In this document: positions 4,514-49,705 of the stretch, piece after piece
Numbering within the stretch: position 1 is the first letter of the stretch
How the letters are laid out: each line of letters starts with the position of its first letter
Sequence record: NC_070982.1
DNA from: Escherichia phage vB_EcoP-101114UKE3
Length of the DNA stretch: 64,000 bases
Reading direction: 5' to 3' (one strand)
Position numbers and translations under genes: made by a program
The notes under the pieces: generated by a model
Told to the model about the DNA's origin: nothing
Seen by the model: only the letters and a program-made list of their open reading frames with translations
The model's database searches: none

Positions 4514-4522
4514 GGAGGAACT

Positions 4523-19612: not shown

Positions 19613-20461
19613 TTATTCCCAAGTTTTATCTAACCATGACCAATCAAAGAGGTCACCTTCAGCTTGTCCAACGAAGAGCAATCGAGCGTTTTCTAACATC
19701 TTATCTTCTGCTTCTTCCTCGAACCTCTTATAGTATTCCATTCGTATAATATGATAAAGAGTCCACTTATCGAATACCTTCTCAATAAGTTTGATTGCAG
19801 CCTTGCTACCAATGCCTTTACGGCGCATAACCAAGTTGCCACCCCACATCATTTCAACCTTCTCACCACAACCGGGAATATTATCTGTATTATCCCCAAT
19901 CAACATTTGGTAGAAGAAATTCTGCCATGCTACTTCTTCTGATACATAATGAGGAGGTACTTCTTTCTGTCTTTCTCCACAAGCCCAACGATAATGCCAT
20001 CCGGGAGTGATTAACAAATCTTTATCACGAGTACAGATAATCGTATTCTTATCTCGTCTCTGTCTTTCAGCTAGGGCATCATCTGCCTCTCTCCCAAAGA
20101 CTTCTACATACTCGTAATTTTCTTTAATATAATCACTAACGTTCTGCCAGTGGTGGGGTCTTTCTCCCGGTGGGCGATTAGCTTTGTAGCCTTGCTGTTT
20201 AGCAATGTTAAATCGAAAGTTACCACCTTCACTGAAGTAAAAGATTGTTTTCTCACAACCTGACCTTGCAATGATTACATCAATTTTGTGTTGAAGTCGT
20301 TCAATCAAGAATCCATAATCAACTGGAACACGACCTGTGTCTAGAAAAGGATGCTCTTGTGTAAGAGCACCGACTTCATATCGCAGAACATCTGCATCCA
20401 CAATTGCTACTTCAGGATAGATTACATCAGACATAGAGTTCTCTCCGTGTCCGTACAACAA
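19613..20461 (-). CDS. 5'-3' exonuclease/flap endonuclease
   Basis: N-terminal VAIVDADVL and H3TH-like GIGSKAAIKLIEKV motifs. Confidence 0.7.
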   Translation of the reverse strand: MLYGHGENSMSDVIYPEVAIVDADVLRYEVGALTQEHPFLDTGRVPVDYGFLIERLQHKIDVIIARSGCEKTIFYFSEGGNFRFNIAKQQGYKANRPPGERPHHWQNVSDYIKENYEYVEVFGREADDALAERQRRDKNTIICTRDKDLLITPGWHYRWACGERQKEVPPHYVSEEVAWQNFFYQMLIGDNTDNIPGCGEKVEMMWGGNLVMRRKGIGSKAAIKLIEKVFDKWTLYHIIRMEYYKRFEEEAEDKMLENARLLFVGQAEGDLFDWSWLDKTWE

Positions 20462-26381: not shown

Positions 26382-26693
26382 CTACTTCTCCACCACAAAG
26401 AGGTTAACTTCAATGAAAGTTTCGTATTGTGTTGACTCCTGCTTACGGGTGTAGTAGAAATGACGACCTTCTAATGCACCTCCGTACTGAGTGGCACATC
26501 TTTTAACCATCTCTTTTATCACATCTACAACTGATTCGCCTTTCCACGGACGTAACCCCTGAGTTGGGACTTTTGCTGTACAGGTTACTTGTGTGTAACC
26601 TACATCTTGTAGAGATATCTCAAGAATCAGCTTTGCCCAAGCATCAAAATTAAGCTTGGGGTTATATTTAACTTCAGTTTTGATATCAATCAT
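26382..26693 (-). CDS. hypothetical protein
   Basis: 103-aa ORF coupled downstream of DNA polymerase. Confidence 0.4.
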   Translation of the reverse strand: MIDIKTEVKYNPKLNFDAWAKLILEISLQDVGYTQVTCTAKVPTQGLRPWKGESVVDVIKEMVKRCATQYGGALEGRHFYYTRKQESTQYETFIEVNLFVVEK

Positions 26694-28537
26694 TAGTGAG
26701 TATGATTCCAGTTTAATCCAATCTTACAATCTGATGCAAGAGGACATTCCATCTTGAGGTATTCCCCTGCTTTACGAACACATTCTTCAGTGAGGGTACG
26801 AAGTTTGTTAACATCATCACGATGTACAGTGAACTGTCCTTCATCATGCATGTCAATAACCTTCGCACAACGAACACCATCCCGCTCAATCCATTTATTG
26901 AGGAATAGCATTGCATACTTCATAACAATCGCCCCAGCGCTCTGTAAGAGTGTATTTAAGGCTTTATGGACCATAACCTTTCCAGTTGCATCTCTTCTCA
27001 TTGTAATACGACGTCCATCCACACCGTAGATATATCCACTTTGCGCTTTCTCTGTCATACGTTCAATAAGGATTGCAATACAAGGGTTCTCTGCTAAGAA
27101 TCTTGCTCTCATGATAGCCCCTTCGTCAGAGCCACCACCTACAATACTTCCTAACTTAGCGTCACCTGCCCCATAGTTAAAGGCATAGATAAACGTTTTA
27201 GCATTATCACGAGTAGGAAGGCCAGCAAGTTTTTGGTTATGTGAGTGAATATCTCCTTCTAAAAGAATATCTCTATACATAACAGCAGAAGCTAGACCAC
27301 GTTCAGCTTCTCGTTTCTTAGCCGGGTTGTTTTCTCGCTCTGCTTCAGCGAGCATCTCACGACATTCTTTAATAAGGTAGTGAGCTAGCATCCTCAGCTC
27401 AAGACCAGAGCCATCGTAACCTAAGAAGATTTCACGACCAGCAGGAACATAGAACTTATAGGCACCTACGGGTTTGTCTTTCTTGCCCGGTTTTCCCACT
27501 TCGTAGATAATGTTAGTACCCTTTCGTACGTAACACCCATCAGGGATATGGTTGGTAATGATGAAAGGATGGTTATGACTATCGTCTGAGGAATAGTCAG
27601 ATTGAAAAAGACTGCGGCACTCGTGACCAAACAAACCGCGAGAAGGAATATTAACAACAATGCGATGTTTAAAACGAAATGTCGGAGTAGCGCAGCTATT
27701 AGCTTCGGCGGACAACTTACCATCTTTACGTTCCTTGTCGATAAGCCCGCTAATCAAACCTAGCCTGTGAGCCGCTACAACGCGTCTCTTAAGCAAACTT
27801 CCTACACCCCCTAGCTCACCCCCAAGCCCCTCTTCAAGAGTCTCCTCAAGGTTTGTAGGGGCTGTGGGCCACTTGTTTGATGTAGCCAAAGCTTTTTTGA
27901 TTTCATCAAAGGTTACAGGTTTCTTCCTATTCGGATTAAGACCTAAACCACTGACGTAGGCTTTCATGTAGTTGACAGTGTGATAACGGAAATGTTTATC
28001 CAAAAATCTTCGGATATCAGCATCTATCATCTCCGCTGTCTGTTTCTCTTTAGCATTACCTCGAATCCAAGCAGAATACCATGCAGAGTATGTACCATAC
28101 TTCTTCATAGCTCTACGGATTTCAAATGTATTCCAAGGTTTCTTAGAATAATTCCACTCTGGAGGTATGAAGCCCTCATCCATCAAGGCTTCTTTAATAC
28201 GTGCATCTTTCGATGGGTCGAAGTCTACATACTCAACGCAAGTAAACGCCCCACCGATATCTTCTCTTTTAAGACCAACCCTATCGCAATAGAGCTGAGG
28301 CCACTTCTGTAAAGCACCTGATTTCTTAAAAGGCTTAGCATAAGTTGAACCATCCACCCGCATTTTAGGGAGGAGAGGAATCAGTTCTTTATCAATATTG
28401 ACAATAATCTCTTTGAGAAGGTGAACAAACCACCGAGCGTTTCTTCTGTTGAAGTTGACTCCATGCTTCGCTTGTTTTGAGATTATATCAGCGACTGTCA
28501 TCTCCGTTATGAAAGGTAACTTATCAGGGTTATCCAT
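26693..28537 (-). CDS. DNA polymerase, family A (polymerase domain only)
   Basis: motif A FLGYDGSGLELRMLAHY, motif B RDNAKTFIYAFNYGAG, motif C VHDE; ATG 28537 with AAGGAG SD (track start 28540 is GTG). Confidence 0.85.
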   Translation of the reverse strand: MDNPDKLPFITEMTVADIISKQAKHGVNFNRRNARWFVHLLKEIIVNIDKELIPLLPKMRVDGSTYAKPFKKSGALQKWPQLYCDRVGLKREDIGGAFTCVEYVDFDPSKDARIKEALMDEGFIPPEWNYSKKPWNTFEIRRAMKKYGTYSAWYSAWIRGNAKEKQTAEMIDADIRRFLDKHFRYHTVNYMKAYVSGLGLNPNRKKPVTFDEIKKALATSNKWPTAPTNLEETLEEGLGGELGGVGSLLKRRVVAAHRLGLISGLIDKERKDGKLSAEANSCATPTFRFKHRIVVNIPSRGLFGHECRSLFQSDYSSDDSHNHPFIITNHIPDGCYVRKGTNIIYEVGKPGKKDKPVGAYKFYVPAGREIFLGYDGSGLELRMLAHYLIKECREMLAEAERENNPAKKREAERGLASAVMYRDILLEGDIHSHNQKLAGLPTRDNAKTFIYAFNYGAGDAKLGSIVGGGSDEGAIMRARFLAENPCIAILIERMTEKAQSGYIYGVDGRRITMRRDATGKVMVHKALNTLLQSAGAIVMKYAMLFLNKWIERDGVRCAKVIDMHDEGQFTVHRDDVNKLRTLTEECVRKAGEYLKMECPLASDCKIGLNWNHTH

Positions 28538-28553
28538 CACCCACTCCTTATAG

Positions 28554-28910: not shown

Positions 28911-29180
28911 TTACTCCACTGTCGGGAATGGTTTTAGGTTGTTCATGGCTGTACGAACATCAGCACAGATTTCAGGATCACGATAAGAGAGGAATTTACC
29001 ATCCTTACCACGAATCATTACATTAGTCCGTGATGTTTTATTAGGCAATAAAGAAATCCCTCCAATAAGATGGTTGGTAGGGTGTTGTCCTTGATTAACC
29101 TTGTAGTCATGAGTCTGAGCGTCACCATTAAAGAGATGATCACGAATTTGGATTAAGCTAATCTTCATATTATGCACCAA
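28911..29180 (-). CDS. small protein, tandem paralog
   Basis: shares TxRTNVxxRGxDGKFxSxRD...NLKPFP with next gene. Confidence 0.4.
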   Translation of the reverse strand: MVHNMKISLIQIRDHLFNGDAQTHDYKVNQGQHPTNHLIGGISLLPNKTSRTNVMIRGKDGKFLSYRDPEICADVRTAMNNLKPFPTVE

Positions 29181-29421
29181 AGTTAGGGAAAGGTTTCAGA
29201 TTTTCAATAGACTTAGCAATACGCTTAGGAACAGCCTTATCACGGAAGGAGATGAACTTTCCATCAGGACCACGAAGGGCTACATTAGTACGAGCTGTTG
29301 TTTTGTTAAACTGAATCATCTCAACAGAGCTTGTAACATTTTCTACAGGAAAAGTATAGCTCTCAGTTGTGTTCAGAGAAGGGAGGAAATCAGTTACAGT
29401 GATGTAAGTTACTTTAGACAT
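29170..29421 (-). CDS. small protein, tandem paralog
   Basis: start MSKVTYI at 29421 after terminator hairpin. Confidence 0.4.
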   Translation of the reverse strand: MSKVTYITVTDFLPSLNTTESYTFPVENVTSSVEMIQFNKTTARTNVALRGPDGKFISFRDKAVPKRIAKSIENLKPFPNFGA

Positions 29422-29442
29422 ATTTATTACCTTAGGTTCTAT

Positions 29443-29472
29443 AAAAGAAAAGGCCACCCGAAATGGGTAGCC
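29443..29472 (-). terminator. intrinsic terminator
   Basis: minus-strand ggcuaccc-auuuc-ggguggcc (G-U on this strand) then uuuucuuuu. Confidence 0.5.
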
Positions 29473-29839: not shown

Positions 29840-30577
29840 TTATGATTTTTCAGATTCCATTGCTTTAACAATAGCTTTACAGAAACCTGAACGAACAATA
29901 TCATCCGATTCGCCATCTACTAGAGCGGCAAATTCAAATAACTGGTGACGGTAGATGAAATCAGTAGCCCAATCAAGACCGCTCTCACCACGCATGTCGT
30001 GCTGGTTAGTGTCCCCCATGCAGAACATCTGAGAGGTTTCACCAAGACGTGTCATGATTGAATATGCTTCATCAGGAGTAGTGTTCTGGAACTCATCAAC
30101 AATCACGATAGCATCGTTGAACGAGCGACCACGTAGATATTCCAGAGGTACGAACTCAATATTACCATTACCTACTTGACATTCGTAGAAACCTTTACCG
30201 TAGCGCTGAGTAATAACATCAACGATTGGCATTAGGTATGGTTCAAACTTCTCACGAAGCCCACCGGGAAGTAATCCAAGACTATTACCCATACCAACAG
30301 CAGGTCGGCTTAGGATAATCTTCTCAATCTTCCCACTCTTCAGAGCATCAATCACTGTAGAAGTGATTACGAAGGTCTTACCACAACCAGCAGGAGCATC
30401 TGTGAATACAACCTGTTTGGTTTTAATTGCATCAAGCAGCTCACTCTGGAATTGGTTCTGAGGTACTACCGGCTTAGCAAGAACTACTTCTTCAAATTCC
30501 CGCTTTCCTTTCTTGGTGACGAGAGCTTCACGACGTAATTCTCTCCGTGATGCTTTCCGAGATTCTCTACGACTCAT
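29840..30577 (-). CDS. phoH: PhoH-like ATPase
   Basis: Walker A APAGCGKT and PhoH-like core. Confidence 0.8.
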   Translation of the reverse strand: MSRRESRKASRRELRREALVTKKGKREFEEVVLAKPVVPQNQFQSELLDAIKTKQVVFTDAPAGCGKTFVITSTVIDALKSGKIEKIILSRPAVGMGNSLGLLPGGLREKFEPYLMPIVDVITQRYGKGFYECQVGNGNIEFVPLEYLRGRSFNDAIVIVDEFQNTTPDEAYSIMTRLGETSQMFCMGDTNQHDMRGESGLDWATDFIYRHQLFEFAALVDGESDDIVRSGFCKAIVKAMESEKS

Positions 30578-30755: not shown

Positions 30756-31076
30756 TCAGATTGATTTGTCCTTATGTAAACGGTATACTTCAGTAGCCAT
30801 ACAAGCTATACGCTCGTCATGTGGGAGATGCATACCAGTAGAGCCGTTCCATCCTTCGAACTCTGAATCAAAGAATCCAATAGGCTCGGGATACATCTCT
30901 TGCAAGGTGGTTAAGTCATCAGCCACTTGTTGCCACTTATCGTCAGACCAGATTGGGTCATCCAACCAATAATACAAATAGGAGTGGATAAGCATCTGTG
31001 TTCTATGTCGTTTAATCACTTCAGCAGGACTGATTTCATTTCCGTTACCAGTCCTAAATGTATTATTGTTGATCAT
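30756..31076 (-). CDS. NAD-dependent DNA ligase domain-Ia-like small protein
   Basis: HSYLYYWLDDPIWSDDKWQQVADDLTTLQEMYPE matches LigA N-terminal H-x-YLY-x-D-P-x-I-D-EYD-L-LE-HPE pattern; no adenylation domain. Confidence 0.45.
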   Translation of the reverse strand: MINNNTFRTGNGNEISPAEVIKRHRTQMLIHSYLYYWLDDPIWSDDKWQQVADDLTTLQEMYPEPIGFFDSEFEGWNGSTGMHLPHDERIACMATEVYRLHKDKSI

Positions 31077-31552
31077 TCCAAAACCCTTTCTTCTAAATCA
31101 TAAAAGATTTGATTTGTCCCATTATTCTCAACAAGCACTGTTCCATTATCTAGCAGGGTAGCAACTTGGGAATAAGGAATGTTCTTTAACATCAGAGCAT
31201 TAATGGTCGGCTTGTTTTTGAAGTAAGCGACAGGCTCAACATAGAAGGAAATCCCACGACTTCCTTTAATTGGGGTGCTTGAAGATAGAACCCAAATTGT
31301 TTCTGGCTTGTCTATTTCCTTTTCAACACCAACCTCAACAAGAGAGTCAGCAGCGAAACCTACAGGACGCCTAGAAGAACCAAGCAACCGAACATATCCC
31401 GGTAATTTTGACATATTAGACCAACTACCAGTGTTTTCATTAAACACAGGTCTTACATCACCATATGCCCAAACCAGATTATCATAGTCACGGGCTATGT
31501 ATTTAACCCAATCAGGAACATCATACTCCCTTCCTTCAAAAATAGCTTTCAT
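31073..31552 (-). CDS. hypothetical protein
   Basis: 159-aa ORF. Confidence 0.4.
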   Translation of the reverse strand: MKAIFEGREYDVPDWVKYIARDYDNLVWAYGDVRPVFNENTGSWSNMSKLPGYVRLLGSSRRPVGFAADSLVEVGVEKEIDKPETIWVLSSSTPIKGSRGISFYVEPVAYFKNKPTINALMLKNIPYSQVATLLDNGTVLVENNGTNQIFYDLEERVLE

Positions 31553-33072: not shown

Positions 33073-33258
33073 TTATAGCATACAAAGAATAATAACAAGA
33101 GGTAGTGTTATAGCAAAATGTACCAGAACAACACTACCTAGCTTGATAGCTTTAACATCCTCTTCTGCTGGGTTTTCTTTAATTGCTAAATTTCGAGCTT
33201 TATATATAACAGTACCAACTATTAACGACCACACGGCCCACACAATCAGTGAAATCAT
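33073..33258 (-). CDS. small membrane protein (tandem paralog)
   Basis: two TM segments; similar to 33268..33489. Confidence 0.45.
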   Translation of the reverse strand: MISLIVWAVWSLIVGTVIYKARNLAIKENPAEEDVKAIKLGSVVLVHFAITLPLVIILCML

Positions 33259-33267
33259 ATCAAACCC

Positions 33268-33489
33268 TTATGCAGTCAACAGGTGGAGAAGGAAAGGAAT
33301 GACAACAGAGAAGACTACCAGAGCAATGCTGCCATGTTTAATGGGTTTAGCGTCATTCGGGTTCTCTTTAAGCATCTGTTTCTGAGCTACATAAACGATA
33401 CCGCCAACAAAAATTGCCCATACAGACCATACGATTGCTGAAAACATACTCATATCCTTATAAAGAAGTTCGCCCCACCTCTTGAACAA
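33268..33489 (-). CDS. small membrane protein (tandem paralog)
   Basis: two TM segments. Confidence 0.45.
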   Translation of the reverse strand: MFKRWGELLYKDMSMFSAIVWSVWAIFVGGIVYVAQKQMLKENPNDAKPIKHGSIALVVFSVVIPFLLHLLTA

Positions 33490-33510: not shown

Positions 33511-34086
33511 TTAGTAAGACACATCACCACTGGAGTGGGACATGTTGCTCTTGACGAAGTAACAGAACTTGCCAAGACCTTCATTAATTTCTTGAAGCAT
33601 ACTCTGGTCCACTGGATAGGTGCACAAGTCTGAATCAAACTCATCCATCTTCTCAATGATACACATAAGAGTCATGCACATGTCGGAAAGCATACCGTCC
33701 ATGTCAAGATCAGCGTTACCTTCTCGGAACCAAGCATGACCTAAATAATTACTAGCAGTAGCATCCACTTTAACACAATGAAAGCGCATACGCTCTGCTA
33801 TTCGGTCGCCTGCCTCACGAGCATAATCTTCTAGTTCATCGAACATACCATGAACACCTTGGAAACCAGCTCCAGAGACGTTCCAGTGGTAGTTCTTTGC
33901 TTTGATGTGTAGAAGTTCAAGGTTAGCTTGCACACCACACAAGATGTGTTCTAAGCTGTTACCGCTAATCAGTTTATTCATTCCCTCAAGACGAGAGATA
34001 GAAGAGTCAGTAGCAGAGAATGGGTTGCTAGAACCCACTCGTGTTAGTTCTGGTAAGTCGAAGACATTATTATGCATTAGGTGCAT
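33511..34086 (-). CDS. Dps/ferritin-like protein
   Basis: YHWNVSGAGFQGVHGMFDELEDYAREAGDRIAER matches Dps ferroxidase-site region. Confidence 0.55.
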   Translation of the reverse strand: MHLMHNNVFDLPELTRVGSSNPFSATDSSISRLEGMNKLISGNSLEHILCGVQANLELLHIKAKNYHWNVSGAGFQGVHGMFDELEDYAREAGDRIAERMRFHCVKVDATASNYLGHAWFREGNADLDMDGMLSDMCMTLMCIIEKMDEFDSDLCTYPVDQSMLQEINEGLGKFCYFVKSNMSHSSGDVSY

Positions 34087-35093: not shown

Positions 35094-35627
35094 TTATACA
35101 CCCTTAGATGCAACTACACCATTACTGCCGTTGTATCGACCCTTCACTGCATAAGAGTCATCACCAGCGTGAGAGTGTTCGAACATAACCATTTGACCAA
35201 CACGCATCCCAGCACGAACTCGTAAGCTATGATTATGGGTAACGTTATGAAATTCAAAGGTTAGTTTACTGCTGTTAAACCCTGCATCAGCCCAACCAGC
35301 ATGGAGGTGGTTTAAACCACAACGAGCCATTGAGGAGCGAAGTACAAACAGGCTTGAGATGTTATCTGGAAGGTTAAACTCTTCCATTGAGTGCGCTAAG
35401 AAGAATTGCCCCGGAGTGATAACAATACCATCTTCAGGGATTTTTACTTCTTTCCACTTGAGGTTTTCTTTAGCATCAATGTCAACAATTCCGTCAGCCT
35501 GTTCTTCAACAAGGATAGTATCACCAATACGGATATCCACGCTAGCAGCGTTAACATATTTATGCTCCGCATCTAAAAAGCCATTATCAATAACGCTGTG
35601 TAATTCTTGAGAACCTAAAAGACTCAT
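35094..35627 (-). CDS. dcd: dCTP deaminase (dUTPase-fold)
   Basis: HAGWADAGFNSSKLTFEFHN motif. Confidence 0.7.
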   Translation of the reverse strand: MSLLGSQELHSVIDNGFLDAEHKYVNAASVDIRIGDTILVEEQADGIVDIDAKENLKWKEVKIPEDGIVITPGQFFLAHSMEEFNLPDNISSLFVLRSSMARCGLNHLHAGWADAGFNSSKLTFEFHNVTHNHSLRVRAGMRVGQMVMFEHSHAGDDSYAVKGRYNGSNGVVASKGV

Positions 35628-37087
35628 GAGTTTCTGTTTCCTTGTACAGATGATGCCAAATTATTAATCATGTTACGAGCTGTTTCACGAGATAGTGTAA
35701 CACCTGCTAAGTTGTTATGAAGCTCACCAGATAGCTCACGAGCAGCAGCTCGAAGTTCTGTACCAAGTGTAGTATCGGAGTGAGCCAAACCATTACGACG
35801 ACTATAAGGTCGAGGAGCTTCGTTAGCGTCATTAGCCAATGATGCAAAACCAATATGAGCAGCTTCACGAGACGCTATAGTTGACACTCGATCTTCCGTA
35901 GGGGTTGGCAAATCACCAACTTCTACACGTTCTATATCACCAGCACGTAGACCCTGAACGACTGAGCTTACTGTTTCCCATGAACGACGAGAACGCTGTA
36001 AATCACCCATTGACGGAGAAGAAGCAGGTCGAACAGTTACTCCACCTGTATCATGAGTGACATGCCATGTACGAGTATCCATTCCAGAAGAGCGTGCACT
36101 ACCAAAACTGCCAGTGAAAGTGTCACGAGGTGCCATTGTAGGAGGAACTGCGAATCTTTCCTGTTGCCAAGAATCGCGTCTGTTAGTTCCCGGAGTCCAA
36201 GGCTGCGTGATTGCTTCAGCACCTATAGTGGTTAATCCGCTAGACCATTCTGTCTGTAGGTTAACTTCCTCGTCCAGATAACTACGACCCCTTTCCTGAG
36301 GAATGTTTAATATAGTTTCCATCATCTTCAGGGTATAATGACGACGCTGATTCTGATATAAATTTACACCAGCCATAGGTCCAACTAAATCACTAATCAG
36401 GTGAACTTCTGGCTCACCGAAAGCTCCCATTGCAAGGTGCATATATTCGGTAGAACTGCTATAAACTGCAACAGTTGCTTCAGGCCACTTCTTGTGAACA
36501 TACTTCATTTCACGACCAGATACCACAGGAATGTCACGAGTGTATGACATTGCAAACAAACCTTCGTTTGACACATACATGTCATCAAGAGACATGAACC
36601 CCTGACAGATCATAGGAAAGCGACGGCTTAAAGTATCCATATCCAAAGGTAGATTAATCATCATCTGGATTTTAACTTGATCAATCTCAATTTCCAGAAT
36701 CTCTTGGAAAGTGAAAAGTGCTTCAGCGTAAGTTGTCCCACTAACAGGCTGAACTAGGCGAGATGTAGTTTGAAGCCCTTTACTCTCTGTCCAAGACAAG
36801 AAGTTGTCAAGGAACAGTGCAGCATTCATCACGTTAGCAGGGTTGTTTTCCTGACGGGTGTTCCAACGAAACCCTCCTTGGACTAGGAAGATATCCACAT
36901 CATTCGGAGTTCGGTTCTGGAAGAACGTATCACGGATAGCACCACCTGCAATAACAGGGTAGATACCATCAGGAACTACGTTGTCTCTGATCAGATTGCG
37001 AATCAGATCAAGCCCTACGCTGAGGGCTTCTCCTTCTTGAAGGTTTAATTCAGACAATGGAATCTTAATCATTTCTACATTTTCCAA
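35624..37087 (-). CDS. nucleotidyltransferase (CCA-adding/poly(A)-polymerase-type head) with low-complexity C-terminal half
   Basis: [10 protein letters not shown]...DVDIFLV polymerase-beta-type NTase motifs; C-terminal 230 aa S/T/R/A-rich. Confidence 0.5.
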
Positions 37088-37623
37088 TTTAGAGATGGGG
37101 GATTCTTATAATCAAATCCAGCCATTTGGCAAAGACACATGTAAACCTTAACTGTCAAGTTAACGTCTTGCTCACAATACGTGAACATGTCTTCAGTGAA
37201 TGCATCCCATGCTTCTTCCTGTTCACCATAATCACCCTTCAGCTCTCCCAGAAATTCGCCCCATTGCTTGAGGCCATGACCGCGAGGGCCATGTCTAGGG
37301 TCGCCTTTGGGGTATTCTGGACTATCACCAATACGGTCAGGCTTGAGATATCTACTCAGGCACAAAGTATCGAAGACGTTAAAGCGAAAAGGTATCACAT
37401 GAGAATAAAACTTAAACAAAGCAGGAAGGTCAAAATCAATAATATTGTGACCTATTACTACATCAGCTTCTTTCAGTTTGTGTAGTGCTTCTTCAATTTG
37501 GTGAGGGCGATACCCCCACCGCTCTCCAGATAATACATCAAATATCCAGATACACCAGACATTCTGAATACCATCATAGAGATTATCACCCTCGATATCA
37601 AACGCATACAGTTTCTTTACCAC
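37075..37623 (-). CDS. DnaQ-like 3'-5' exonuclease (stand-alone)
   Basis: Exo I YAFDIEGD, Exo II HNIIDFD, Exo III YCEQD. Confidence 0.6.
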
Positions 37624-41200: not shown

Positions 41201-42436
41201 TTACAGAGTTACTGCTACTTCGCTACCTTCAACATTGACAGACTCTAACTTGCGAGGGTTATGAATCTGGACTGGATTGACCGGAACGTTCCAACCACTG
41301 CGGTAGAAGTTACGACCATCACAGAACAAAATGACATTGGCAGACATTGCATTCGGTTGAAGGTTGTTGTGGACGTGACGGATATCTGCAATCCAGTAAC
41401 CACGAGACAAAGTGTAACCAGTAGGTGCATTACGAATAGTTTGAGTATTCATCTGACCTTCTAGCTGCATTTCTTCAGGAACTACATCTACCGAATCAAC
41501 CGGCTGTGCTACTTGTCCTTCCAGTGCAAAGTTTTCATCATCAGCACTTTCAATATCATCCACTAACTCACCGTCTCCATCTTCAATCGGAGTCTGGTAA
41601 ACCACTTTATACTGAGGAGTATAGAGAGGGTTCTGAGCTTTAACAAACTCAAGAATGTTATGACGGTAGGTATCCAGAGTTGTACCAGTCAGGCCCGGTG
41701 CTGTATTAACTTCCAGTACCCACGCTTCTTGACCTTTGGTGATAATATCAACTGCACCGAAATCCAGACCCATTGATTCAACAGCTTTCACTGCATTGAT
41801 CAGAGAGGCGTCATTCGGAGCATCTGTGAAGGAGCTTGAGTAAACCCAGCCAGTGTGGTGATTACGAATATCTTCACGATAGTTAGGGTCTTCGCGATAA
41901 CCATTGCGACGAATCTTCTTCTGAACATAGGTGATTACACCTTTGAACACATGGACACGCCACTCACGACGTGGGCCTTGAATGCCTTTAGTGTACAGTT
42001 CAGCTCGACCAAGACCATCACCCGGTTCTACAACAACAATGCCCGAACCAGAGTGACCAGTCAGCTCATGGCGCTCATACACAATATTACCAGTGTTTGA
42101 CCACTCTTGAGCAGTCTCTTGAACATCTGTGTATTCCACAGTTTTAACACCTGCTTGGTCCATCACGCTGAAAGCACGACGTTTGTTCGCTGCCATATGT
42201 AAGGCTGCGGTACGGTTAAGGACGGTTGCAGAACCAAAGAATGATTCAGGATAGCGACGGTTCCCGTAGTTAACAACCACATCACCTTCACGAGAACGCC
42301 AGCGGCTATTCTCTGAAAGAAGACCCATCACGTTAGCATTGATGCGTTCATCACGGATAGTATCACTGATAGCAGATACTAGAGCGTTAACAGAATCAGA
42401 CGGGCCATACGGAAGAACACGGATACGAGTAGTCAT
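41201..42436 (-). CDS. ATP-grasp amidoligase
   Basis: C-terminal WVLEVNTAPGLTG ATP-grasp signature. Confidence 0.75.
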   Translation of the reverse strand: MTTRIRVLPYGPSDSVNALVSAISDTIRDERINANVMGLLSENSRWRSREGDVVVNYGNRRYPESFFGSATVLNRTAALHMAANKRRAFSVMDQAGVKTVEYTDVQETAQEWSNTGNIVYERHELTGHSGSGIVVVEPGDGLGRAELYTKGIQGPRREWRVHVFKGVITYVQKKIRRNGYREDPNYREDIRNHHTGWVYSSSFTDAPNDASLINAVKAVESMGLDFGAVDIITKGQEAWVLEVNTAPGLTGTTLDTYRHNILEFVKAQNPLYTPQYKVVYQTPIEDGDGELVDDIESADDENFALEGQVAQPVDSVDVVPEEMQLEGQMNTQTIRNAPTGYTLSRGYWIADIRHVHNNLQPNAMSANVILFCDGRNFYRSGWNVPVNPVQIHNPRKLESVNVEGSEVAVTL

Positions 42437-42438
42437 TT

Positions 42439-42669
42439 TTAGATACCTTTTAGTTTAAGAATTTCGTTACGACAGGATTGAATTTTAGCTTCGATTGCCC
42501 AATACTCAGCGAACATTTCGTCTTCTTGGGCATCGCTTGGAGAGTCGATTAAGTTAAAAGCAAACGGATACAGCTTTCGCTGCTCCGTTACCAGTTGTTG
42601 AAGTCGGAGTTGTTGATACTCCAGCATTGTCAGGTGAGGCTTAGCTCCCTTGCTTGACATGAGGCTCAA
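42439..42669 (-). CDS. small hypothetical protein
   Basis: 76-aa ORF. Confidence 0.35.
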   Translation of the reverse strand: MSLMSSKGAKPHLTMLEYQQLRLQQLVTEQRKLYPFAFNLIDSPSDAQEDEMFAEYWAIEAKIQSCRNEILKLKGI

Positions 42670-42874
42670 CTTTAATCCCCTTCATTTTAACATAGTCAGC
42701 CAACACGTTATTGATAACGGTTGGAAAAGGGATTTCTACTGGAGAGTCAACCAGCTTCCCAATACCTTCTTGCATCCACTTCTGGATTGCTCGGAGGTTA
42801 TCACATCCTGTGCTTGTCATCGGAATACGGCGGGTAGTTACCACGTTATCCAACATCAGTTTACGAACTTCCAT
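42641..42874 (-). CDS. small hypothetical protein
   Basis: 77-aa ORF overlapping previous by 29 nt. Confidence 0.35.
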   Translation of the reverse strand: MEVRKLMLDNVVTTRRIPMTSTGCDNLRAIQKWMQEGIGKLVDSPVEIPFPTVINNVLADYVKMKGIKVEPHVKQGS

Positions 42875-42885
42875 AACTATACCTC

Positions 42886-44919
42886 TTAGTGTTTACCTTT
42901 ACAGTAATCTGAATTACAGATCACCCTGTTTTCTTTGTTCAGTGAGCAAGTTTCTGCATCACGCCACGGAATTTGTTTATAACAGACTGCACAAAACCCA
43001 ATTGAAGTCCAGAGGGCTTTTGTAAACTCAGCTGTTCGTTGTCCATCGTAACTGACAACTGTTTTTCGGAGAGAGGTTGACTTTTCTGGAAATGTCTCCG
43101 CTTTCTCAGCGGGTACCTCCTTTGGGGCATTCTTTGGACCATAAACAGAGATGGCATAAGTATCACCACCACGTTTTTCCAAATACGAATTAGGAACATC
43201 TGCAAGTGTGATGTCCCCTGAACGTTTTGCTGAGCTGACCATTACAATCATACGGCTAAGCATACGTTCATCAACACGAACAGCTACTTCAGGACGACGT
43301 GGGTTGGTTGTGTCTACTGCTTTAGTCCAAATATAACCTTCAGATAGAGTAACATTCTTTACTTTATCTTTGATTTCTTTGGAGCAGATATAACAAACGT
43401 CTTCACCACGAAGTTTACTCATTTCGTTGTCAAACTCGAAATCAGTCTTGACTTCACCACAGATAGCACATACACCCAAAGGCACATCTTCTTCCTCTTC
43501 AGAGGTTTTAGATAACGCTTCGAAGCATTCTGGATGCCAGTATGCCTGATAAGCAAACACAGCCTTACGAGCATCTTTCCAGTCAATGTGCTTATCACAA
43601 CCACCACAGTCACCATGAGAGTGAGATTCCCAGAACTTACGAGTGACTTCTACACCATTCTTAGTGATGAAGGAGTCCTCTGCATCAAAAGGGATATCAT
43701 CATCAAAATCAGCAGTAGTGCTTTGAGGCTCCTTATCTGTAGCATCAACAAACAGCCCTGAAGTTAGTACGAGGCGAATCATACTGTCCACTTCGGAGAT
43801 ACAAGCAATCGTCCCGCGATATACTACCTTTGGGTTTTCAAGAGCCTTAAGATATTCATCTTTGGCTACGTTGTGAACATCCCCTTCGACATACTCTTGA
43901 GCTTTATCATCGTAGATGTAACCAACCATCTTACCACGATCTGTGTTGTTATAAGCATGGAACTCGTGAGGAATAATATCCACACGACCATCACGACGAT
44001 AAGGAAGACCGCGATCGGCAGCCAGTTTGTTCTGGTCTTCAATCGCTTTACGACGACGAATGTCTCCGCTTGTCACGCCGGGCTTGTCGTCTTTGTTTCC
44101 GTAAATGTCGCTTGTGCTGCTGCTTGATTTGTTTGTCTGTTGGTTCTGATAAAGAGAGGAGTTCGAGTAATAGCCGCCCCAGCGACTCGTTACCGTAAAA
44201 ACCGGAAGCGTGTGCTCCACCTCTTGAACCAGAGTCATACGACTGTTAGACACATCAAAGATATACTCAGTTCCCACTTTACATTCGAAGTGGTCATTGA
44301 TATGGTTCTTATGGGACTTAGAACGCTCTAAAATCCACATAAGCATAGCTTCTTCAGAAGCTCCAAACCAATCCAAACCACAGCGGGCTAGGTGGAAAGG
44401 ACGCTCATCATTACGGATAATGTGAAGTGTGTTGTCTTTAGCATCATGCCAAATCAAAGTGAATGCACCATCCAGTTTTTGGATAGTCTCTGCTGCTCCA
44501 ATGGTGTTAATTGAGTGGCAGATGTTTTCACTATCAACTTCGAAACGCTTACTGTCAGGAAGGAGATCTTGATCTAACAGGGTTCCATTATGAACCAGAG
44601 TAATATCCCCGTGAGTAAATGGGTGAGCATTTCGAGCATTGACAGCCCCACGAGTGGCATGTCGGCTGTGACCAACAATCCACGAAGGAGGAACTACGTA
44701 GTTCGTAAGCCCTTTGGTAATATTTGTATATTCTGTCTGGAGCATAAAAGCATAAGAAGGAAGAGCTTCTTTATAAGAGAAGACTTGCTTTTCACCTTTA
44801 CGCTGACCAAACACACCAGTTGAGTGCTGTCCACGGAAAACACCAGCATACAGAAGTTGGTTGAAAATGTCCAAATCTGCTGAGGTCATGTTGCCGCCAG
44901 CTAATACGATACCACAAAT
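42886..44919 (-). CDS. class-II (Ntn) glutamine amidotransferase fused to Cys-rich Zn-ribbon region; proposed AUU start
   Basis: CGIVLAGGN...YAGVFRGQHSTGVFG and HSRHATRGAVNARNAHPF...LVHNGTL match PurF/AsnB-type domain; catalytic Cys lies 9 codons upstream of track ATG (44889), preceded only by ATT then AAA then TAG, with AGGTGG SD 8 nt before ATT. Confidence 0.65.
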   Translation of the reverse strand: MCGIVLAGGNMTSADLDIFNQLLYAGVFRGQHSTGVFGQRKGEKQVFSYKEALPSYAFMLQTEYTNITKGLTNYVVPPSWIVGHSRHATRGAVNARNAHPFTHGDITLVHNGTLLDQDLLPDSKRFEVDSENICHSINTIGAAETIQKLDGAFTLIWHDAKDNTLHIIRNDERPFHLARCGLDWFGASEEAMLMWILERSKSHKNHINDHFECKVGTEYIFDVSNSRMTLVQEVEHTLPVFTVTSRWGGYYSNSSLYQNQQTNKSSSSTSDIYGNKDDKPGVTSGDIRRRKAIEDQNKLAADRGLPYRRDGRVDIIPHEFHAYNNTDRGKMVGYIYDDKAQEYVEGDVHNVAKDEYLKALENPKVVYRGTIACISEVDSMIRLVLTSGLFVDATDKEPQSTTADFDDDIPFDAEDSFITKNGVEVTRKFWESHSHGDCGGCDKHIDWKDARKAVFAYQAYWHPECFEALSKTSEEEEDVPLGVCAICGEVKTDFEFDNEMSKLRGEDVCYICSKEIKDKVKNVTLSEGYIWTKAVDTTNPRRPEVAVRVDERMLSRMIVMVSSAKRSGDITLADVPNSYLEKRGGDTYAISVYGPKNAPKEVPAEKAETFPEKSTSLRKTVVSYDGQRTAEFTKALWTSIGFCAVCYKQIPWRDAETCSLNKENRVICNSDYCKGKH

Positions 44920-44996
44920 TTTCTAATCCACCTGAAGGGTAAACCCTTTCATCTAATTAACCTTTAAATGCGCCCTGTATAAGAGCGCCCGTTGTG

Positions 44997-46097
44997 TTAC
45001 AGCAGTCGTTCTAATTGCATTTCCAGATGGTCTGGAATATAACCAGTGACGTTATCATCACTGCTACCTGATTCACGCATCAATGCAAACATGTGACGAA
45101 TTTCACGAACCGTTGCGATTCGAGTGCTTTCAATCTGAGGGGTGTAGTAGGTCATGATCTCTTCGTAGACACTGTTGGCATTACCGCGCACATATCCCAA
45201 GAAACCATAGAAGTCATTCATATCACGTAAGTTGATAAGGACTTCACCATCAGGGCCAGTCTGTTGCACACGAACACGACCAACCAAAGTTACAGATTGC
45301 TCACGACAGAAGAGAATATCACGAGCAAGACGATACCCTTCAGTGAGATCACTGTCTCTTGGAGTATAGTCTAGGGGTAGATGTTGAATCATAGGAGCGA
45401 AGCGCAGCTCATTCAACTTCTCAACATAAGCTTCATTGTCTAAATCTGCATATTCAACAGCCAGTTTCTTGAGAACCAAGAAGCGGTTGACCAGATTCAG
45501 AAGTTGGCTCTTTTTCCACTTCGGCTCTGAGATACGGAACTCAACAGAACCAAATTGAGATAGAGGCAAAAGATTAAGGGAGGTGTATTTATCCCAGCTA
45601 TTAACAAGAGAGTGGAAGAAAGCTTCCCCGTCTCGGTTGAACGCTGACGAAGCATTCATAACTTGTGCTTGAACGACAGCAAAAGCTGGACAGAAGTTGC
45701 TACGATAGCGATGGTATCCAGAACATTTGAACATCATCTTTTCATAGAACGTCCATCCAAGAATAACTTTCTTAAGGATATTACTATCAGCGTCACGCAT
45801 ATCCATATGAACGTGAGTGGAGCAGCGCCAAGTTCCCTCGGCTCCAGAATCCTGTACTGCTTCACTCAGATTGTTAATAGCACGAAGTAATTCTTCACCG
45901 TTGTAAGGTCGTGCACATACTAATTCACAACCATCACGAAGAGAGCCATCTTCAGTACAAACCCACATATCAGCGTCAATGTCAGTTGTACCTTCGACTT
46001 CTAACTCAATACCAACACCACACTGAAAAGCAATACTTGGATGCGGTTCAGATAAGCGAGGGTTACGGTATCCAAAAACTTGTGCTACGGTTGTCAT
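44997..46097 (-). CDS. amidoligase (glutamine synthetase/GCS-like fold)
   Basis: GIELEVEG ... CSTHVH motif pattern. Confidence 0.5.
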   Translation of the reverse strand: MTTVAQVFGYRNPRLSEPHPSIAFQCGVGIELEVEGTTDIDADMWVCTEDGSLRDGCELVCARPYNGEELLRAINNLSEAVQDSGAEGTWRCSTHVHMDMRDADSNILKKVILGWTFYEKMMFKCSGYHRYRSNFCPAFAVVQAQVMNASSAFNRDGEAFFHSLVNSWDKYTSLNLLPLSQFGSVEFRISEPKWKKSQLLNLVNRFLVLKKLAVEYADLDNEAYVEKLNELRFAPMIQHLPLDYTPRDSDLTEGYRLARDILFCREQSVTLVGRVRVQQTGPDGEVLINLRDMNDFYGFLGYVRGNANSVYEEIMTYYTPQIESTRIATVREIRHMFALMRESGSSDDNVTGYIPDHLEMQLERLL

Positions 46098-46720
46098 AAT
46101 GATTCCACCAACTCTACATTATATGATGACAGGTCTGAAGAAATATGCTTGAACTTCTCCAGAAGGTTTAAAGATTGACGACCATTGTCGCCATAACCAG
46201 CTTCAAGAAGCACGTTTCCAACGTAAGCCCCTTTGTAATAAACTTTTCCATCGACAGGATTGATATAGATGAAACGAGTAACCAACCCTTCAAACTCTGG
46301 ATTAAACAGGTTATACACCAAATCACCCGGAATCGAACGTCCGAGAGAAGGTGGAGTACCACGAAGTTTATTCCCCATCAAGCCTTTAGCTCGCTGACGA
46401 ACAGGGTTGATATGGGTCCAGCTCACCACGTTATTACCATGCTGAAGGTATCCTACATCTGGAGACTCCAGAATGAGGCTGTGATCAAACACTGGGATAT
46501 TACTAACAATCTGACGTTCAAACTGACCTTCGGAGTTTTTAGTCCAGCGTTCCGCCTCAAACACTAAAGACATTTCAGCGTCGTGTGAGTAGTCGTCGAT
46601 ATCAAAGTTACCTTGCTGACGAACATCAAGCACATATAGAGGGAGGTTTTTACCATCAGGTGATCGCTGAGCAATCCATGTTCCACAATAATAGTGTTGA
46701 AAATCTCTTAACAAGCTCAC
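46094..46720 (-). CDS. hypothetical protein (cassette member)
   Basis: 208-aa ORF translationally coupled within cassette. Confidence 0.4.
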   Translation of the reverse strand: MSLLRDFQHYYCGTWIAQRSPDGKNLPLYVLDVRQQGNFDIDDYSHDAEMSLVFEAERWTKNSEGQFERQIVSNIPVFDHSLILESPDVGYLQHGNNVVSWTHINPVRQRAKGLMGNKLRGTPPSLGRSIPGDLVYNLFNPEFEGLVTRFIYINPVDGKVYYKGAYVGNVLLEAGYGDNGRQSLNLLEKFKHISSDLSSYNVELVESL

Positions 46721-46729
46721 AATATCACC

Positions 46730-47536
46730 TTATACAATCTGGAGTTTAGAGGAGAATTTATCTGCTTCTTTAACATCGTTACTGTTGATGATGTTGTGAA
46801 GCTTTTCAATTGGAAGGCGAGAGTGAAGTGACATCAATACTTCCATATCACAGCCTTGAACAACCTTATCAACTTGCTCATAAACAAACTTGCGGGTTGA
46901 CTTCTCGCCAATCCAGAAGTTAGAAAGAGAACGATATTCAATACCGTAATCCTTGTAACGAATGGCAGAAGCCTTTCCGTATAACTCTTTACGACGAGTG
47001 TCTTTATCCATGATTACAGCTGGCAAGGACAGGAAATAATCACACAACACACCCAACATCATTTGAGTTTGTCGAGTAATCTCTAAAGTCCCGGAGACAC
47101 CAAGGTGCACATGACCCCCAGCAGTACGCAAACCCTTATTAGTTGCGACCGGTGAAGGGTTCTTTTGTCCAGTGAAGGCATTGAAATCAGGAGTACAACC
47201 AAATACAAAGGCTGACGGATGGAAAGATTCAAGCTCTTCTGAAGTGAACACATGAGAGCTAATCCCAAGTGCTGCCTCCATGCCACGTTCATTGAGAACT
47301 TTGTTAGTCAGATCAATACCACGCTGAATGTTATCATCAAACGCTTCAAACCCTTCCTGTGGGTTAATATCAAACTCGGCCAGAACGTTGTCTTCTTGAA
47401 GACGAACATCAGGAGCCAGATCAATTTTATTGTCTTTAGAACAGCCCAGCTTACCAGCCACAGAGGTGATAATACCGGAAGCAGTACGAACAAACATTTC
47501 AGGGTCAGAGCCAATAAGGAAAGCGCGCTTAGTCAT
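46730..47536 (-). CDS. COOH-NH2 ligase-like protein (second amidoligase)
   Basis: start MTKRAF at 47536 with GGAG SD; GSDPEMF ... GCTPDF ... GGHVHLG motifs. Confidence 0.5.
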   Translation of the reverse strand: MTKRAFLIGSDPEMFVRTASGIITSVAGKLGCSKDNKIDLAPDVRLQEDNVLAEFDINPQEGFEAFDDNIQRGIDLTNKVLNERGMEAALGISSHVFTSEELESFHPSAFVFGCTPDFNAFTGQKNPSPVATNKGLRTAGGHVHLGVSGTLEITRQTQMMLGVLCDYFLSLPAVIMDKDTRRKELYGKASAIRYKDYGIEYRSLSNFWIGEKSTRKFVYEQVDKVVQGCDMEVLMSLHSRLPIEKLHNIINSNDVKEADKFSSKLQIV

Positions 47537-48479
47537 TGTAATACTCCACGAGTTCATCAAAAAGGGAAACAACACGAGCACCAGCTTCTTCTGGTGTCAT
47601 TGAGGAAGGTACTGCTTGCATCAGACGTTCGATAAAACTTTGAACAGTAATTCTGTCCATACGCTGATCTAATACTTCTCGCTTGTGACCTGCACAAGTT
47701 GACCAGAGACGTAACCACTCACTCATACTCTCATAATGGTCAGGGTCTTGGTCACGACGACGTGCCATACGACGGAGAACTCCATCATTATGGTTTCGTA
47801 CATAACCATCTCGGTTGTCATCAACACCGAATACATTCTGAACCCATACGTTTTCAGAAAATTCATCAGTGGTGCAAATTAATGGCAGAAATGCAATTGC
47901 ACTCATGTCGCCATCAAAATAAGTCGCTGCTGACTCATCGGTTGAGTCTACGTCATTACTATAACACCAGCGACCAAAGAAGTTACGACTTAAACCAGCT
48001 AAGCGTAGAGCTAAACCGATTCGTTGTCGCTTAAGCAACTCTTCCTTGTCTTGTACGCCTTCCTGAAGGAACTCCATTCCATTAAAATCACCATCCAAAT
48101 AGCTACGGATGGTCATTAGTCCAGTAAACACCTTGTCTGCTGGATGGTTTCGAAGGTTCACGGCAATAGAGTTCACCGAAGTGACAGAGAACATATCTTT
48201 ATAGCAAGACATTGAGTTAAAAATGTCTGTTGCTTCAACTAAAGCTCTTTCGATATCTTTAGCTGGTACGCCATAAAAATTGTGAGGCCAGAAGTTAATA
48301 ACTTCAATTTCTGAAGTTCTGTCACGAAGGCTTGTTCGGTTACGACTTTCACCGTTAATGTCTGTAACAGAATACATGTGCATACAGTTAAAAGTACCAA
48401 AGCAAGCTCTTCCTTTGAACACTGACTCACCGAAATCCTCTGCCGGTGTTACCGGAGCAATCGATGCGGAGATTGACAT
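47529..48479 (-). CDS. hypothetical protein (cassette member)
   Basis: 316-aa ORF. Confidence 0.45.
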   Translation of the reverse strand: MSISASIAPVTPAEDFGESVFKGRACFGTFNCMHMYSVTDINGESRNRTSLRDRTSEIEVINFWPHNFYGVPAKDIERALVEATDIFNSMSCYKDMFSVTSVNSIAVNLRNHPADKVFTGLMTIRSYLDGDFNGMEFLQEGVQDKEELLKRQRIGLALRLAGLSRNFFGRWCYSNDVDSTDESAATYFDGDMSAIAFLPLICTTDEFSENVWVQNVFGVDDNRDGYVRNHNDGVLRRMARRRDQDPDHYESMSEWLRLWSTCAGHKREVLDQRMDRITVQSFIERLMQAVPSSMTPEEAGARVVSLFDELVEYYND

Positions 48480-48487
48480 ATTCGCCT

Positions 48488-49705
48488 CTATTTATTAAAG
48501 AATAATTTTTCCATAATGGTTTCCCACTCTTCTGAGGGGAGGGTTGAGAACCCGTTTCCGTGAAGCCTGTTTGTCATGCAACTAATAATATTGTACATGT
48601 TGTAGCTTCGGGTGGATTCTGTTCCATTGTTCCAGTTATAACCGAAAACAATTTTATCGAAGGAGGTTTTATCCGTAGTTACTTCTCGGATGAACTCAAC
48701 CAAGAGCGATTTCTCTGTGATGACCGCACGTTCACCATCTGGCAGATTACAATACTGAGGAAGAAGAATTGGTAAGAACATCGAATTGTTCACTCGACAA
48801 TCACGAACATCTTCACTGCGATAGATTAGGCTTGAGAAGTCTTCATCACGCAGGTGTCCTTCACCTTCAGTGTATTCACACTGTCGCCATTTGGTCTGAC
48901 GAGGTTCAATCATTGTACTACCAACGCCTACTGTATACAGAGACGCTTGGAAGATACACGAGTCGTAATCATTCCCTGTTAAAGCAACTTGCTCATTGCC
49001 GAACACATCCACTGAAGAGTTAATCAGTCGGCTGAATGCAAGAGAGGCTAGTGGAGACCAACCTTTCTTATACATCTTGTTCAGCATTTCATACACAGCA
49101 GATTTTTCATCATCTGTATAGAATGTACGATTCAGCATCAGATAGAACAGAGCGCGATCAGCAGGACAACCATCAGTACAAACACCCATGAATCCTACTT
49201 CATGCCATACCAGACATGAGTCAGAATCTTTATCCATGAATGCTTCAAAGGCTTCCATTACAGCCCTGTCAGTAACATCAGGACGGTTGTTTTCTTCTGC
49301 CCATGTTTCTACATGAGAAGGAGGACGAGGGTCTCCATTCTCCACCCCTTCGCGGAAATATTGAGTGGTAATAGGCTTTTTATCACCATAACGTTTTACA
49401 CCATAAGCGGGAAGGTGTGTACCAGAGTTCCAGATGTACTTAATTTCGGACATAGGCATCATGTTTTCGAGAACGTTCTCTTCAGCAGTGCCTTGACGAA
49501 CCATCATATTTTCACTCCACACCTTAATGCGGATATTCCAGCCGTAGTTGCTGTCATACGTGTTATAATAATCAGGATCACCATCTTCATCTTCATCATA
49601 ATCACCACCCTGATAGTAACCTGCTTTCAGGAAACCATAACAAGGAGGCCAGACGGTTACAACATCATCTGATTCTTTCCAGCTTTGAAGTGTTACAGGG
49701 AACAT
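48488..49705 (-). CDS. hypothetical protein (cassette member)
   Basis: 405-aa ORF, acidic N-terminus. Confidence 0.45.
   Translation of the reverse strand: MFPVTLQSWKESDDVVTVWPPCYGFLKAGYYQGGDYDEDEDGDPDYYNTYDSNYGWNIRIKVWSENMMVRQGTAEENVLENMMPMSEIKYIWNSGTHLPAYGVKRYGDKKPITTQYFREGVENGDPRPPSHVETWAEENNRPDVTDRAVMEAFEAFMDKDSDSCLVWHEVGFMGVCTDGCPADRALFYLMLNRTFYTDDEKSAVYEMLNKMYKKGWSPLASLAFSRLINSSVDVFGNEQVALTGNDYDSCIFQASLYTVGVGSTMIEPRQTKWRQCEYTEGEGHLRDEDFSSLIYRSEDVRDCRVNNSMFLPILLPQYCNLPDGERAVITEKSLLVEFIREVTTDKTSFDKIVFGYNWNNGTESTRSYNMYNIISCMTNRLHGNGFSTLPSEEWETIMEKLFFNK

Follow-up and report, generated by a model that had tools for sequence, protein, structure and literature searches.

We found that a short gene of Escherichia phage vB_EcoP-101114UKE3 (NC_070982.1) encodes a free-standing protein in which residues 17 to 61 are, on sequence comparison, a true homologue of the domain Ia hairpin in LigA, the NAD+-dependent DNA ligase, joined to a C-terminal half that is specific to its own family. 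The analysis covered a stretch of 64,000 nucleotides, referred to here as the window. The only Pfam domain in the 106-amino-acid (aa) protein is PF22745, titled "Nlig-Ia: DNA ligase-like, N-terminal NAD+-binding domain," which matched at 116.6 bits (cutoff, 27; E = 8.2e-34) over profile positions 1 to 91 of 92; PHROG 6466 also matched (E = 2.8e-38). NCBIfam has no dedicated model for the solo Nlig-Ia proteins and gave only subthreshold matches to the LigA N terminus.

Both this finding and its reading are already known, as the family was published in 2022 and is curated in Pfam. Iyer, Burroughs, Anantharaman, and Aravind (Viruses 2022; PMC9503650) described it with ECBP2_0056 as the exemplar, and that gene is the syntenic orthologue of the one studied here (97.2% identity, located between PhoH and ThyX in both genomes). 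The protein thus shares its family, its orthologous gene, its architecture, and its full-length profile match with the solo Nlig-Ia proteins of other phages. In the portion of PMC9503650 available to us, the reading is likewise that of a stand-alone NAD+-binding domain in a ligase-less phage, with no essential difference from ours. Relative to that portion, the new elements here are the two-part anatomy, the residue statistics, a tally of genomic contexts, a helicase fusion, and a record of mis-annotation.

Escherichia phage vB_EcoP-101114BS3 (MZ234015.1), a phiEco32/ECBP2-like podophage belonging to the Gordonclarkvirinae, matches the window at 100% identity (adding 9800 to a record coordinate gives the window coordinate); there, the gene has the locus tag 101114BS3_037 and the product name "hypothetical protein." It lies in a minus-strand operon with the order Pol A, five small open reading frames (ORFs), PhoH, a 49-aa ORF, Nlig-Ia, a 159-aa ORF, a small Zn-ribbon ORF, and ThyX (Table 1). 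The ATGA overlap between Nlig-Ia and the 159-aa ORF, an arrangement also present in ECBP2 (0057/0056) and in MZ234015.1, implies that the two genes may be translationally coupled inside this long operon. Elsewhere in the window, we observed two adjacent pairs of similar small proteins, a ferritin/Dps-like protein, and a phiEco32-type cluster of RimK-like and amidoligase genes that is already known for this phage group.

Table 1. Coordinates of the solo Nlig-Ia gene, its parts, and other features of the window
Feature	Coordinates	Strand	Basis or remark
Solo Nlig-Ia gene	30756..31076	minus	Complete ATG-to-stop ORF, 106 aa
LigA Ia-like two-helix hairpin, residues 17-61	30894..31028	minus	hhalign, PDB profile, PF22745 control, model
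Solo-specific C-terminal half, residues 62-103	30768..30893	minus	No LigA counterpart
Most conserved family block, FEGWNGSTGMHLP, residues 73-85	30822..30860	minus	131-member counts
Upstream 159-aa ORF	31073..31552	minus	Partner in ATGA overlap
ATGA start/stop overlap, Nlig-Ia with 159-aa ORF	31073..31076	minus	Coordinates and sequence
Shine-Dalgarno-like AAGGG, 7 nt 5' of Nlig-Ia ATG	31084..31088	minus	Sequence inspection
PhoH-like ATPase	29840..30577	minus	Within 5 kb of Nlig-Ia
5'-3' exonuclease of DNA polymerase I	19613..20461	minus	One of three Pol I genes
Polymerase of DNA polymerase I	26693..28540	minus	One of three Pol I genes
3'-5' exonuclease of DNA polymerase I	37075..37623	minus	One of three Pol I genes
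Adjacent small paralogue pair	28911..29180 and 29170..29457	minus	Common ...RTNV.(I/L)RG.DGKF.S(Y/F)RD...NLKPFP
Adjacent pair of similar small membrane proteins	33073..33258 and 33268..33489	minus	
191-aa ferritin/Dps-like protein	33511..34086	minus	Pfam Ferritin, E = 7e-8; Bas87 label "DNA binding protein"
487-aa protein	35624..37087	minus	PHROG 12715
phiEco32-type cluster	41201..49705	minus	RimK-like ATP-grasp, glutamine amidotransferase, amidoligase, COOH-NH2 ligase
Three large proteins of that cluster	46094..46720, 47529..48479, and 48488..49705	minus	No Pfam match

Relationship to LigA

Because solo proteins make up most of PF22745, a match to it is not sufficient proof of a relationship to LigA. 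As a control, E. coli LigA (translated from the K-12 genome) matched this profile at 44.8 bits (E = 2e-11) over profile positions 2 to 52 only, corresponding to LigA residues 4 to 54. When a profile built from alignment A1 (63 solo proteins) was searched against all PDB sequences, the LigA proteins of about 15 species came out on top with individually modest E values (0.01 to 0.4), and the register was constant, with solo residues 16 to 62 aligned to LigA residues 3 to 49. Alignment of A1 with E. coli LigA residues 1 to 159 by hhalign gave a probability of 92.7% over 45 columns (solo 17 to 61 with LigA 4 to 48). The NCBIfam LigA models TIGR00575 (15.7 bits; cutoff, 444.45) and NF005932 (15.1 bits; cutoff, 369) matched over only their first ~45 positions. 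It is because the LigA control, the A1 profile, hhalign, and NCBIfam agree that we regard the hairpin as a true Ia homologue.

In the structure model of the protein, the two helices of this hairpin span residues 17 to 38 and 45 to 61, and fold searches with the model pointed to LigA, with PDB entry 8jyd among the structural matches. A single-sequence phmmer search of the PDB instead placed STN1, a subunit of CST, on top (E of ~0.1) through a YY.VDDPVW-like string. We consider this match to be due to chance, since LigA, and never STN1, emerged from the profile, hhalign, and fold searches alike. An initial annotation, made from the sequence alone, had called the product a 106-aa stand-alone protein resembling LigA domain Ia, and its reading is supported by the PF22745 match, which is far beyond chance, by the hhalign result, and by the predicted two-helix hairpin; the strand, which it left unstated, is minus. 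The peptide that it quoted as fitting the LigA N terminus, HSYLYYWLDDPIWSDDKWQQVADDLTTLQEMYPE (residues 31 to 64), aligns without gaps to E. coli LigA residues 18 to 51 with 11 identities in 34 positions.

The homologous hairpin of LigA domain Ia (E. coli LigA residues 1 to 69; PDB codes 5tt5, 2owo, and 4glx) is always fused to the NTase-OB-Zn-HhH-BRCT body of the enzyme, where the NAD+ pocket is formed jointly with the NTase domain. The phage protein, in contrast, is free-standing and has an extra C-terminal half of 45 residues with an invariant motif of its own. E. coli LigA showed its NTase, OB, Zn, HhH, and BRCT domains in a control run, whereas the 106-aa protein matched neither PF01653 nor the OB, Zn finger, HhH, and BRCT models and contains no K.DG motif; Ia is the only LigA feature present in it.

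Searches beyond the gene gave the same result. A tblastn search of the whole window with host LigA returned only LigA residues 12 to 53, at 31004..30879 (E = 0.009), with no NTase, OB, HhH, or BRCT region. Pfam scanning of 31 window proteins, comprising nearly all window ORFs of at least 150 aa and the small ones flanking the gene, found no ligase domain besides Nlig-Ia among products that included Pol A, separate 3'-5' and 5'-3' exonucleases, a primase-helicase, a GATase, amidoligases, and virion proteins. For the remaining 11.7 kb of the genome, the absence of a ligase was judged from the annotation of the BASEL phage Bas87, a complete genome 96% identical in this region, which lists no ligase besides a mislabelled Nlig-Ia gene (Bas87_0052). 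Accordingly, the initial statements that neither the protein nor its neighbors have an adenylation domain or KxDG motif (checked by the K.DG and Pfam scans) and that the window has no DNA ligase (checked by tblastn and the Pfam scan) both hold. The four K.DG strings that an all-frame scan located outside the gene lie in two short ORFs, a tail-fibre-like ORF, and the GATase protein, and we attribute each of them to chance. We also rejected the 487-aa "nucleotidyltransferase" as a hidden ligase module, as it carries a Pol-beta/CCA-type GGAIRD..DVDIF motif instead. Pfam, NCBIfam, and PDB sequences gave no match to this protein, which is conserved within the phage group, has a low-complexity C-terminal region of ~200 residues, and is encoded between a dCTP-deaminase-like gene and the 3'-5' exonuclease gene. 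DNA polymerase I is divided among three genes in the window, and a split DNA polymerase I is typical of this phage group (PMC9965538).

On these sequence comparisons, the solo Nlig-Ia protein is neither a ligase nor a ligase subunit. Since the protein, the window, and the Bas87 genome all lack a catalytic module, the labels "DNA ligase" and "NAD-dependent DNA ligase" given to solo Nlig-Ia proteins are wrong. Mislabelled records include many from Kuravirus, some 50 to 60 Arthrobacter phages, and Dp-1 gp16, and the solo protein gp57 of phage YF01 is called a DNA ligase in the text of PMC9965538. Such mis-annotation extends over GenBank, RefSeq, SEA-PHAGES, and at least one publication, and it gives the false impression that these phages are ligase independent. 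T5-like phages likewise carry pieces of LigA as separate genes ("subunit A/B"); however, those pieces include the catalytic NTase and OB parts and together make up a ligase, and none of them occurs in the Nlig-Ia phage genome. In T5-like coliphages (e.g., NC_017969.1 and MT843274.1), the NAD+-dependent ligase is annotated as "subunit A" and "subunit B," and a LigA catalytic module is carried by 1204 phage records overall.

Conserved residues and the C-terminal half

Sriskanda and Shuman reportedly found in 2002 that five Ia residues are required for the reaction with NAD+, and we take these five to be Y22, H23, D32, Y35, and D36 of LigA. In the common register, these E. coli residues correspond to Y35, Y36, D45, W48, and Q49 of the solo protein. 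We assessed conservation in a set of 131 diverse members that are 26 to 53% identical to the query. Y35 and Y36 are each tyrosine in 130 members, D45 is aspartate in all 131, and position 48 is always aromatic (W in 107, F in 18, and Y in 6). Position 49 is glutamine in 77 and aspartate in 34, and thus one or the other in 111 of the 131. At positions 48 and 49, then, most members have W-Q, whereas LigA has Y/F-D, a pairing (F/Y-D) that a minority of solo proteins retain. The aromatic pair that holds the nicotinamide in LigA and the accompanying aspartate are conserved, and at the level of sequence, the positions equivalent to the NMN contacts of LigA are strongly conserved in the solo proteins.

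A review (PMC7470946) describes the NAD+ pocket of NAD+-dependent ligases as built jointly by the Ia and NT domains, with the nicotinamide stacked on a tyrosine pair. The available text of PMC9503650 states that the ligand-binding residues are conserved in solo proteins, and our counts support this because the aromatic sandwich and the aspartate are retained. Covariation among 264 nonredundant members (mutual information with APC correction, kinship ignored) paired Q49 with D53, D70, and F68, which is suggestive of a link between position 49 and the loop residues D70 and F68.

The second half of the protein was absent from the initial annotation and is not described in the portion of PMC9503650 available to us. 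In the structure model, it comprises an ordered nonhelical segment (residues 62 to 87) and a third helix (residues 88 to 103), with pLDDT values of 81 to 95. PF22745 positions 53 to 92 are matched by solo proteins and not by LigA. In a BFVD fold search, phage solo proteins and the N terminus of ReqiPoco6 Gp102 superposed over 87 to 105 columns (TM score, 0.74 to 0.89), whereas only 47 to 61 columns of genuine phage LigAs were aligned (TM score, ~0.41 to 0.44). The strongest motif of the family lies in this half and reads F73-x-x-W76-x-G78-S-T80-G81-x-H83-L84-P85. F73 and G81 are invariant in the 131 members, G78 is found in 109 and L84 in 127, position 76 is W (115) or F (16), and position 80 is T (109) or S (22); in the closer set A1, the whole block is invariant. 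The solo protein lacks the NT half of the pocket, and the GSTG.HLP loop may therefore replace it. Residues 73 to 85 would then constitute a lid or a phosphate-contacting loop that completes the ligand pocket.

Distribution and genomic neighborhoods

An exhaustive HMM search of 1.84 billion representative proteins recovered 996 clusters at E values of ≤1e-3, 550 of them at ≤1e-10, and the best 150 of the 996 measure 61 to 315 aa. A second search, in a 90%-identity collection, gave 988 clusters at E values of ≤1e-5 (91 to 135 aa in the best 120 of the 988), and the close homologue clusters (n = 92) all fall between 73 and 167 aa. We found no effector domain in the solo Nlig-Ia protein. Few fusions exist. 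One was observed in gp102 of the Rhodococcus phages ReqiPoco6 and ReqiPepy6 (541 aa; RefSeq label, "DNA ligase"), in which a complete Nlig-Ia module with GSTGFHLP (residues 16 to 101) is joined to an SF2 DNA helicase (PHROG 62, E = 8e-66, residues 98 to 537; 3959..5584 of the ReqiPoco6 locus, L009). Gordonia, Arthrobacter, and Streptomyces phages have homologous helicases without the Nlig-Ia module, and we rejected helicase fusion as a general rule, since only two sequenced phages have it. Separately, the metagenomic proteins P0171 and P0184 combine Nlig-Ia with a conserved C-terminal region of ~200 aa whose sole match is PHROG 13900 ("minor head protein"); these may be true fusions or gene-calling artefacts.

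We then compared 15 loci. Nlig-Ia neighbors Pol I in Arthrobacter phages and Pol I, ThyX, and a deaminase in Rhodococcus phage RGL3; it lies between a UvsX-like recombinase and a clamp loader in Streptococcus phage Dp-1, between DnaN and Pol III genes in Clostridium phage phiCTP1, and near thymidylate kinase in Erwinia phage Phobos. Its neighbors are gp32, gp59, and PhoH in T4-like contigs, RecA and clamp-loader genes in three further contigs, and ribonucleotide reductase and dCMP deaminase in one more, while a Marinobacter prophage has only small hypothetical genes there. Genes for replication, recombination, or nucleotide metabolism thus occur within 5 kb in 14 of the 15 loci, representing at least nine phage types, although a position near replication genes is probable a priori for every early or middle gene of a phage. 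No recognizable NAD-salvage or ADP-ribose-processing gene was present at the 15 loci, and a phmmer comparison of eight window neighbors with the ORFs of eight loci found no partner gene conserved across lineages (one low-complexity match). Three T4-like contigs (L012, L017, and L018) have the set DUF932, Hydrolase_2, Trans_coact, and gp32 in common around Nlig-Ia, and a PhoH-like ATPase lies within 5 kb in two unrelated contigs of this kind (L017 and L018), as it does in the window; both recurrences may be coincidental.

Possible functions

The reading that we favor, at roughly even chances, is that solo Nlig-Ia is a self-sufficient NAD+/NMN binder, made together with the replication genes, that acts as a ligand-gated regulator or sensor. 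Its homology, its fold, the lack of a catalytic module, and the conserved NMN-contact positions are observed; that it binds NAD+ or NMN is what we infer. The Ia-like hairpin and the family-specific C-terminal loop and helix would together make a self-sufficient helical fold of ~12 kDa. Within it, the nicotinamide would be stacked between Y35 and W48, D45 would contact the ribose or the amide, and the invariant G-S-T-G-x-H-L-P loop would take over contacts that the NTase domain provides in LigA. The protein would be coproduced with the phage replication and nucleotide-metabolism genes and, more speculatively, might report or buffer nicotinamide-nucleotide status for the replication program through a protein partner. 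The change of contact position D36 of E. coli LigA to glutamine in most members speaks against a binder or sensor, and the affinity of an isolated hairpin is uncertain, given that the LigA pocket is completed by the NTase domain. Further points against a sensor are the lack of an effector domain and of a partner gene shared by different lineages, the absence of NAD- or ADP-ribose-metabolism genes around it at the 15 loci, and the low weight that nearness to replication genes carries for an early or middle phage gene.

In essence, the sensor reading was put forward by Iyer et al. (2022), who, in the available part of PMC9503650, suggest that solo proteins either sense NAD+ or shield it from host NADase effectors. 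A search of the literature available to us found no experimental follow-up or binding experiment on solo Ia proteins. Bulk shielding appears unlikely to us. Cellular NAD+ is millimolar, which makes such a role implausible for a stoichiometric binder. Small single-domain phage sponges such as Tad1, Tad2, and Acb2 act against nucleotide-based immunity, and they sequester low-abundance signalling molecules without a nicotinamide moiety. NAD+ sensors have also been engineered from LigA, presumably using Ia together with the adenylation domain. These constructs (e.g., PDB code 8jyd, a genetically encoded sensor) indicate that the NAD+-binding parts of LigA can sense without ligation, although they are artificial, whereas the solo protein is natural. 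NAD+ reconstitution by NARP1 and NARP2 (NARP1 is mentioned in the available part of PMC12774641) is likewise a phage response to NAD-based immunity, but one that relies on catalytic enzymes. The folds of Tad1, Tad2, Acb2, and NARP1/NARP2 are unrelated to Nlig-Ia, and no evidence links it to them.

An unlikely reading, yet the best surviving of the alternatives, is that solo Ia acts on host LigA, which a ligase-less phage needs for Okazaki sealing. Docked to the NTase domain of LigA or to the replisome of the phage, it might load NAD+, lower the NAD+ requirement, remove NMN (the product that reverses adenylation), or bring LigA to phage forks. The phage encodes no ligase itself, and of the 81 solo-carrying phages in the available text of PMC9503650, 80 are without the catalytic module of an NAD+- or ATP-dependent ligase, a pattern that fits functional substitution. 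The location of the gene inside replication modules in many lineages, the helicase fusion in ReqiPoco6 and ReqiPepy6, the reversibility of LigA step 1 with NMN (the exchange reaction; PMC4797296), and the split LigAs of T5-like phages also argue for such a role. Against it, the solo family is only ~24 to 33% identical to host Ia, varies little between phages whose hosts are unrelated (a feature at odds with host-specific docking), and has a C-terminal half that LigA lacks. Only two sequenced phages have the helicase fusion, and most ligase-less phages manage without solo Nlig-Ia. A more specific form, which we think rather improbable, is a trans-acting accessory subunit of LigA, a viral version of its cofactor-handling domain with a phage-specific C-terminal extension, that would keep up Okazaki sealing at low NAD+, for example during NADase-based immunity, or tether LigA to the phage replisome; it would explain the near-perfect exclusion of ligases, the location in replication modules, and the helicase fusion.

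We regard it as more doubtful still that the hairpin has been reused as a ligand-independent adaptor, a helical protein-binding module such as an inhibitor, in which the conserved residues are structural or form an interface. The positions equivalent to the LigA NMN contacts are the most conserved, the invariant acidic D45 is unlikely to be a core residue, and the glycine-rich GSTG loop appears to resemble a ligand or phosphate loop. Finally, it is extremely improbable that the protein is a DNA ligase, a ligase subunit, or a decayed remnant of a phage ligA, despite the database labels and the "NAD-dependent DNA ligase" name of PHROG 6466, because at 106 aa, it has no NTase domain, KxDG lysine, or OB, Zn, HhH, or BRCT domain, reaches only 15.7 bits with TIGR00575 (cutoff, 444), and has no catalytic partner gene in the genome, while a family of ~1000 clusters with constant size and its own conserved C-terminal motif excludes a remnant.

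The depletion of NAD+ is a major bacterial antiphage strategy, and it is LigA that makes replication in bacteria dependent on NAD+. The sensor idea has been in print since 2022, and the value now lies in experiments rather than in discovery. Because this widespread protein (~1000 clusters) keeps only the nicotinamide-nucleotide-binding piece of LigA, solo Nlig-Ia is a good candidate, on the strength of its sequence, for a phage NAD+ sensor or ligase helper.
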